The position numbers were made by a program, and so were the translations under genes. From assembly GCF_036507355.1 (NCBI RefSeq), contig NZ_AP027877.1: 64,000 nucleotides of DNA; one strand, given 5' to 3'. Every line of letters begins with the position of its first letter. Within the stretch, counting starts at the first letter, position 1. Origin of the DNA: Escherichia coli. Its GTDB lineage: Bacteria > Pseudomonadota > Gammaproteobacteria > Enterobacterales > Enterobacteriaceae. Below the pieces are notes generated by a model, which saw only the letters and a program-made list of their open reading frames with translations, made no database searches and had not been told where the DNA came from. This document shows, in pieces, positions 18,412 to 18,503 of this stretch.

Positions 18412-18445
18412 GAAGAAAAATGCCGCTCTGTTTGAGTGGGCGGCA
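18412..18445 (-). terminator. rho-independent terminator (native yicC-type terminator displaced to attL side)
   Basis: minus-strand tgccgc-ccactcaaacaga-gcggca hairpin followed by TTTTT; lies just downstream of the attL copy of the yicC 3' end. Confidence 0.55.
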
Positions 18446-18486
18446 TTTGTGAAGGCTGAAAAGTAAGAATTGGCGTTACGAGTTAT

Positions 18487-18503
18487 TCAATGTTCTGAAT
18501 CTG
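18487..18503. other. attL core (imperfect direct repeat tcaatGttctgaatctg)
   Basis: 17-bp repeat matching 26622..26638 with one mismatch; minus-strand reading gives ...QIQNIE-stop, i.e. a second copy of the yicC C-terminus. Confidence 0.7.

Follow-up and report, generated by a model that had tools for sequence, protein, structure and literature searches.

An 8.1-kb integrative island very probably integrated site-specifically into the last codons of yicC in Escherichia coli

An integrative island of 8.1 kb, with a tyrosine integrase, an AlpA-type protein and a primase/helicase pair, occupies the interval between dinD and yicC in a 64,000-nucleotide stretch of Escherichia coli DNA (contig NZ_AP027877.1 of assembly GCF_036507355.1; hereafter the window), and it was very probably integrated site-specifically into the last codons of yicC. 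The intactness of yicC despite the insertion is explained by a gene end supplied by the island, which takes the place of the host end and leaves the encoded protein unaltered. The features on which this reading rests were collected from sequence reading, repeat searches, family searches, folding predictions and comparison with other genomes (Table 1).

Table 1. Features of the island, its two junctions and the adjoining yicC gene (coordinates in the window)
Feature	Coordinates	Strand	Basis
Native yicC intrinsic terminator, displaced by the insertion (hairpin ~18418-18448, U-tract 18409-18417)	18409..18448	-	-12.4 kcal/mol, z -2.6
Native yicC 3' end, orphaned at attL: cag att cag aac att gaa taa (QIQNIE-stop)	18483..18503	-	Sequence read
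attL copy of the 11-bp identity block TTCTGAATCTG, inferred crossover region	18493..18503	.	Repeat search and seven-island comparison
Island-specific DNA (inserted unit 8,135 bp with one copy of the 11-bp block)	18504..26627	-	Repeat spacing
Cargo region, four small ORFs (151, 134, 62 and 97 aa)	18648..20497	-	Without family match
DUF927 primase/helicase-type replication protein	20759..22480	-	Pfam DUF927, E 1e-75; PHROG 1139
Toprim-domain primase	22462..23388	-	Pfam Toprim_3; PHROG 2249 DNA primase, E 1e-52
AlpA-family HTH protein, likely excisionase/regulator	23857..24030	-	Pfam Phage_AlpA, E 4e-10; PHROG 66 'excisionase and transcriptional regulator'
283-aa protein, possible regulator, weak N-terminal MerR/HTH-like match	24144..24995	-	Pfam MerR, E 3e-4, below curated cut-off
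Tyrosine integrase, 419 aa, arm-binding N-terminal domain	25182..26441	-	Pfam Arm-DNA-bind_3, Phage_int_M and Phage_integrase; PHROG 1, E 1e-71
Island-borne intrinsic terminator, upstream of int (hairpin 26558-26580 and UUUUUU)	26552..26580	-	-11.5 kcal/mol, z -3.4
Three phased ATCAC/ATCAT motifs, 10 nt apart, between stop and island terminator	26590..26614	-	Sequence; arm alignment
Island-supplied yicC end, (aa)t att gag tag	26618..26627	-	Sequence; TAG form confined to 12 island-bearing genomes; differs by island lineage
yicC (YicC/YloC family endoribonuclease), intact, 287 aa	26618..27481	-	ORF; NCBIfam TIGR00255, E 1e-138
attR copy of the 11-bp identity block TTCTGAATCTG	26628..26638	.	Repeat search and seven-island comparison

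The C terminus of the yicC product reads ...MREQIQNIE* (...LIEQMREQIQNIE-stop) and is encoded at the junction designated attR by the codons cag att cag aat att gag tag, while the minus strand at the opposite junction, attL, again reads QIQNIE and a stop, here preceded on its 5' side by DNA unrelated to yicC. The two copies differ at three positions, all of them synonymous (aac/aat, gaa/gag and taa/tag, attL before attR), and beyond the second Gln codon they part (aatatt at attL versus ctcgcg at attR). A repeat search aligned positions 18463-18503 with 26598-26638 over 41 nt at 73% identity and a spacing of 8,135 bp, and this pair proved to be the longest two-copy direct repeat within 18000..27000. 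Perfect identity extends over the 11-bp block, and by our own estimate a given 11-mer would be expected to recur by chance on the same strand within ~8 kb ~0.002 times. The boundary of the island is fixed to within this block and not to a single base, which sets the limits of the island at 18493/18504 to 26627/26638. The yicC reading frame and its 287-aa protein are restored with the same QIQNIE* as in the orphaned copy, and the orphan QIQNIE-stop at 18483-18503 is to be regarded as a relic, not a gene. A first-pass annotation of the window had described a yicC end reading QIQNIE-stop at attR and a synonymous copy at attL, both of which are present in the sequence as described, together with two terminators at 18412..18445 and 26554..26579, both of which fold, with coordinates within a few bases of ours. 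It had also considered the island boundaries defined to the base, for which an uncertainty of 11 bp must now be substituted, and the yicC C terminus to be recoded, a description that holds for the synonymous codons and not for any special feature, this being ordinary divergence between attP and attB.

Which of the two ends belongs to the host was decided from island-free genomes. When 5,426 complete E. coli genomes were queried with a composite of the attL left flank, the core and the yicC body, the composite dinD-yicC site was continuous in 3,931 of them, indicating that the insertion is clean. In both aligned island-free sites, those of K-12 NCM3722 and of Res13 (of the island-free relatives found, the closest), yicC is directly followed by the downstream sequence and terminator of the attL side, and the attR-side spacer and hairpin are absent. 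Alleles were counted with 30-nt exact-word queries, a match requiring the diagnostic bases to be joined to the yicC body. Given as plus-strand sequences, the attL allele TTATTCAATG was found in 1,030 genomes, the K-12 allele TTATTCGATG, one base off the attL allele, in 667, and TTACTCAATA, which has a TAA stop and the codons AAT ATT GAG, in 1,305, including Res13. The attR form (CG followed by CTACTCAATA), with its TAG stop, occurred in 12 genomes, all of them carriers of the island family, and at least 80% of the island was present in nine genomes, each time between dinD and yicC. Because the island-free sites are of the attL type and the TAG form is restricted to carriers, the host is the source of the terminator and downstream sequence at attL, and the same comparison assigns the TAG stop, spacer and terminator at attR to the island. 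The first-pass annotation had predicted that an empty site would match the attL side in both codons and terminator, and had named an attR-like yicC end in an island-free relative as evidence to the contrary. The terminator and downstream sequence do match attL; the codons do so in the 1,030 genomes with the attL allele and not in Res13, which reads AAT ATT GAG, and the attR-like end found in this island-free relative is confined to these codons, the TAG-spacer-hairpin not being there. As AAT ATT GAG is a common host allele, the codons alone would falsely speak against the integration, and it is the stop codon and the sequence downstream of it that discriminate. For the mapping of such islands, codons at a junction can thus mislead, while the stop codon and the downstream arm are diagnostic.

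The same division between host and island was seen when seven E. coli islands were compared, namely that in the window and six others, which are 79-99% identical, one of them with a different primase. Their attL copies comprise four host alleles (TTATTCAATG, TTATTCGATG, TTACTCAATA and TTATTCAATA), always preceded by the host terminator, and their attR copies carry the island alleles CTACTCAATA, CTACTCAATG or TTACTCGATG, always preceded by the island hairpin; variation at attL goes with the host allele and variation at attR with the lineage of the island. Moreover, in each of the seven islands attL and attR disagree in the base flanking the 11-bp block, on either side of it, which places the exchange inside the block. 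In the island of E. coli 09A22CPO026 (L006, 9264-9274), the attR block reads TTCTGGATCTG against TTCTGAATCTG at attL, and since this mismatch, a G, falls inside the presumed crossover block, the position of the crossover is not pinned down. The repeat, whose absence from homologous islands the first-pass annotation would have counted against its proposal, was present in every related island examined and also in Kluyvera and Methylomonas, and the proposal itself, that an element integrated at the 3' end of a gene and restored the coding sequence, is in agreement with the empty sites and with the covariation among the seven islands.

Integration of this kind would involve a crossover within the 11-bp block, whose coding strand CAGATTCAGAA specifies Gln-Ile-Gln and the first two bases of Asn, the exact point being presumed. 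The attP arm would supply the end of the Asn codon, Ile, Glu and the stop, replacing the last 10 nt of yicC, and would also bring an intrinsic terminator, set off from the stop by a 37-nt spacer in which three phased TCA motifs lie. In the integrated state, island DNA would complete and terminate the yicC body at attR, its protein unchanged, and the last host codons and the host terminator would be left orphaned at attL, 8,135 bp away, beside dinD. The hairpin of the island begins 37 nt past the TAG stop of yicC, and the native terminator on the dinD side starts ~35 nt past its stop; the island terminator probably now ends the yicC transcript and shields int from read-through. The phased motifs follow one another in the window as ATCAC, ATCAT and ATCAC at 26614-26590 (minus strand). 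Among 36 distinct arms, TCA is found at +5, +15 and +25 past the stop in 27, 25 and 16, respectively, with the CA conserved at 86-97%, and these motifs are candidate binding sites in the attP arm for the arm domain of the integrase or for AlpA. From what is known of its family, AlpA plausibly controls excision, and the excised circle would be expected to contain the attP junction ...GATACGCTACTCAATATTCTGAATCTGAATATTGAATTG....

Searches for an attP junction (island arm, core and far side) found none in viral contigs, using an exact pattern, or in metagenome contigs, using a TAG-specific pattern. A 39-nt attP query against complete E. coli genomes matched only attL sites of hosts with the TTACTCAATA allele, from query base 8 onward, and among sequenced phages the best match to the integrase was 34% identical, with no attP readable. 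No excised or circular form was thus detected in this material, and the lack of the junction in assemblies does not exclude excision. In analogy with the lifestyle of gram-negative phage-inducible chromosomal islands (GN-PICIs), the island may still be mobile and dependent on a helper phage, and neither a helper phage nor a packaging gene nor a pac/cos site was found for it.

Two other explanations of the junctions were weighed against site-specific integration at the 11-bp block. In the reverse assignment, the attR codons would be native, the attL copy and its terminator would belong to the island, and the crossover would lie further downstream of the stop. Such an arrangement could draw on Res13 and the 1,305 genomes in which yicC ends in AAT ATT GAG, as it likewise does in dinD-less strains, but in the AAT ATT GAG genomes these codons are followed by a TAA stop and host sequence, not by the TAG-spacer-hairpin. 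Moreover, in the examined island-free sites yicC runs straight into the attL downstream sequence and terminator, with the composite continuous in 3,931 genomes, the attL alleles follow the host and not the island, and the 11-bp block is the only identity long enough for strand exchange, the adjacent base differing in seven of seven islands. We therefore regard the reverse assignment as very improbable. Even less credence is given to a repeat arising by chance or as a transposition-type target-site duplication, instead of by integrase-mediated recombination. Exact identity does extend over only 11 bp, and no attP form was recovered; against this, the imperfect similarity reaches 41 nt, and independent islands, like those of other genera, share the site, the orientation and the repeat. 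The junction is 177 nt away from a tyrosine integrase gene, no transposase is among the Pfam and PHROG matches, and a target-site duplication would not produce the synonymous differences between the copies.

A third reading accepts site-specific integration of the island and adds an earlier event on the dinD side. The presence of dinD is polymorphic in E. coli (window 17320-18482), the gene being absent from roughly a quarter of genomes; in the window it is a pseudogene (17438-18262, minus strand), whose match to an intact 274-aa dinD is spread over three frames, with 1-nt indels at two places, near codons 74-78 and near codon 172. In some 1,490 of 5,424 genomes the match to the island-free query begins only at the yicC stop codon. 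The idea that their sites are occupied by other islands was wrong, as the two genomes sampled (L004 and L005, 15921-16000) are simply without dinD, with yicG adjoining yicC across a 77-nt unrelated spacer. The arrangements with and without dinD diverge at the yicC stop, and the edge of the dinD indel hence coincides with the attachment region. A nested history, in which the apparently native end at attL (GAA TAA, spacer and terminator) was itself brought by an older, dinD-delivering element, would accommodate this exact divergence and the lack of dinD in about a quarter of E. coli, as well as the distance of the dinD-side terminator from the stop (~35 nt, similar to the 34-48 nt of the island family) and the identity of 14 of the 20 nt beyond the stop between attL and attR. 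We nevertheless consider it unlikely. With a profile built from 38 island arms, the sequence downstream on the dinD side went undetected even at E <= 100, the similarity over the 45 downstream nt is marginal (25 of 500 shuffles score as well), the dinD-yicG boundary showed neither a relic of a yicC-end repeat nor a remnant of an integrase, and the yicC end is not unusually diverse at synonymous sites, 110 of 852 windows being as variable. It is just as doubtful, in our estimation, that the yicC stop is a serially reused landing pad at which dinD was an earlier arrival, with the TCA motifs and terminator forming a portable 'gene-end cassette' of the integrase family; were this true, the 'native' end at attL would be the replacement copy of an older element.

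Two related ideas were set aside. Derivation of the island copy from a dinD-less allele by a 1-nt deletion (TAAGCG to TAGCG) found no backing in the 45 nt downstream, which matched no better than shuffled sequences (111 and 357 of 500). Nor could the yicC end be called a polymorphism hot-spot created by repeated integration and excision, as its last 13 nt contain three segregating sites where 1.1 would be expected (P ~0.10).

Turning to the gene content of the island, all credible ORFs lie on the minus strand, co-oriented with yicC, in the order (from the yicC side) int, the 283-aa gene, alpA, a gene for a 167-aa unknown protein, the Toprim primase gene, the DUF927 gene and four small unknowns. 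All three Pfam domains of the integrase scored above the cut-off, and int is separated from the yicC stop by 177 nt. The start of alpA was set at an internal ATG, matching annotated homologues of 57-62 aa (174-189-nt HTH genes), and the 283-aa MerR-like protein had no PHROG, PADLOC or NCBIfam match. The cargo region differs among related islands; searches of its ORFs against Pfam, PHROGs, PADLOC and NCBIfam were empty, as was an Rfam search of the island, and across the island Pfam, PHROGs, PADLOC and NCBIfam gave no defence-system, late-gene, mobilisation or transposase family match. A perfect tandem duplication of a 19-mer (CAAAGTAGGTCTTCACTTT twice, 24113-24150) spans the stop of the 283-aa gene ~80 nt upstream of alpA. 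It is also found in the near-identical island of strain J6, is absent from five more divergent islands, and may be an operator or a recent slip.

Elements that insert into the 3' end of a gene and supply its replacement are well known: phage 21 and e14 in icd and P4-type elements in tRNA genes bring a diverged synonymous 3' end and leave the native fragment at the far junction. The replacement seen here is much shorter than that in icd, with 10 nt of coding sequence beyond the 11-bp core versus ~165 nt, and differs from the phage 21/e14 icd and the tRNA cases in being paired with a conserved terminator and phased motifs. Like satellite phage P4, the island is small, has an arm-binding integrase and a primase/helicase module and is transcribed in one direction; unlike P4, its target is a protein-coding gene and not tRNA-Leu, homologues of Psu, Delta and Sid are absent from its PHROG matches, and a P4-type immunity RNA is absent from its Rfam matches (E <= 0.1). 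The icd and tRNA targets are also mentioned in a preprint on PICIs (bioRxiv 10.1101/2022.07.18.500453).

The attachment site itself has a record of use. The yicC 3' end is the integration target of MGIVflInd1-type and SGI1-like mobilizable elements, including those of E. coli and Salmonella (PMC8409611), prophages have been recorded at the yicC-dinD interval in O157:H7 (PMC9997748), and reference PICIs integrated in yicC are mentioned in the above preprint, which cites the original GN-PICI set (bioRxiv 10.1101/2022.07.18.500453). GN-PICIs are organized in the order int, alpA and primase in a single direction (bioRxiv 10.1101/2022.07.18.500453). The island shares with them this unidirectional arrangement, a variable downstream region, a small size and the yicC target, and its attP-borne replacement keeps the target gene functional, as the preprint states for internal gene targets (bioRxiv 10.1101/2022.07.18.500453). 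It differs in its length, 8.1 kb versus the 10-20 kb quoted (bioRxiv 10.1101/2022.07.18.500453), and in the extra 283-aa gene between int and alpA. Moreover, GN-PICIs have often captured a gene for a capsid or another late function and redirect packaging in the RppA manner, whereas no capsid or late-gene match was obtained here with Pfam and PHROGs and no RppA was recognised among the matches. The yicC-specific integrative mobilizable elements MGIVflInd1 and MGIVmi1 and the SGI1-like IEEcoMOD1 and IESenUSA1 likewise have a tyrosine integrase at the yicC 3' end, with int adjoining yicC, but they are of 22-37 kb and carry mpsA, traG, traN, sgaC or mobI, an oriT and the RdfM excisionase (PMC8409611); no Pfam or PHROG match to mpsA, traG, traN, sgaC, mobI or RdfM was obtained among the 10 ORFs of the island. 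By gene content, the island is closest to a small gram-negative PICI.

To place the integrase among its relatives, one genome per species was scanned, yielding 43 loci with integrase homologues of 44-91% identity. In 32 of them yicC is co-oriented and lies ~190 nt upstream of int, and the hosts include Enterobacterales, Aeromonas, Tolumonas, Zobellella, Neisseriaceae and Methylococcales. Among these 32 loci, a hairpin with a T-run is located 34-48 nt past the yicC stop in 30, and the yicC C terminus is QIQNIE* in all but three, which have NVE. Judged by these arms, the module of yicC, stop, spacer, terminator and int is conserved across the integrase family. Distal duplicates were found in Kluyvera, where CAGATTCAGAACATCGAATAA with a native-type end and a host terminator lies 7.9 kb off, and in Methylomonas, as a 25-nt perfect repeat 9.0 kb off; seed-based and degenerate-codon searches of the 10 kb fetched turned up no distal repeat in most of the 32 loci. 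The fetched DNA reaches back into host synteny, marked by yicG, in two of the 43 loci, those of Citrobacter and Kluyvera; in most others it stops short of the host flank, and a missing repeat there does not count as a negative. In Citrobacter sp. NCU1 (L026, ~19230-19300) the far junction lies just before yicG, giving an island of ~9.5 kb; it shares only ATTCAGA (~7 nt) with the yicC end, is followed by a host-type terminator and has not kept the QNIE reading frame in its orphan copy. Such a junction fits the 'attB drift' that has been reported for yicC-integrated PICIs (bioRxiv 10.1101/2022.07.18.500453). Eleven of the 43 loci (L033, L034, L042-L045, L049 and others) have no yicC nearby, several of them holding the more distant relatives (47-58% identity); a switch of target in the course of the family's history is hinted at, although some of those contigs are short.

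The integration style and the yicC target are already documented, and the current understanding of integration is unchanged by the present island, the value of which lies mostly in the clean annotation of an 8.1-kb phage-satellite-like element. For the integrase family, the conserved arm, consisting of the stop, three TCA motifs, the terminator and int and retained in distant Gammaproteobacteria and some Betaproteobacteria, offers a compact attP model for yicC-specific integrases, which could be of modest use as an integration tool.
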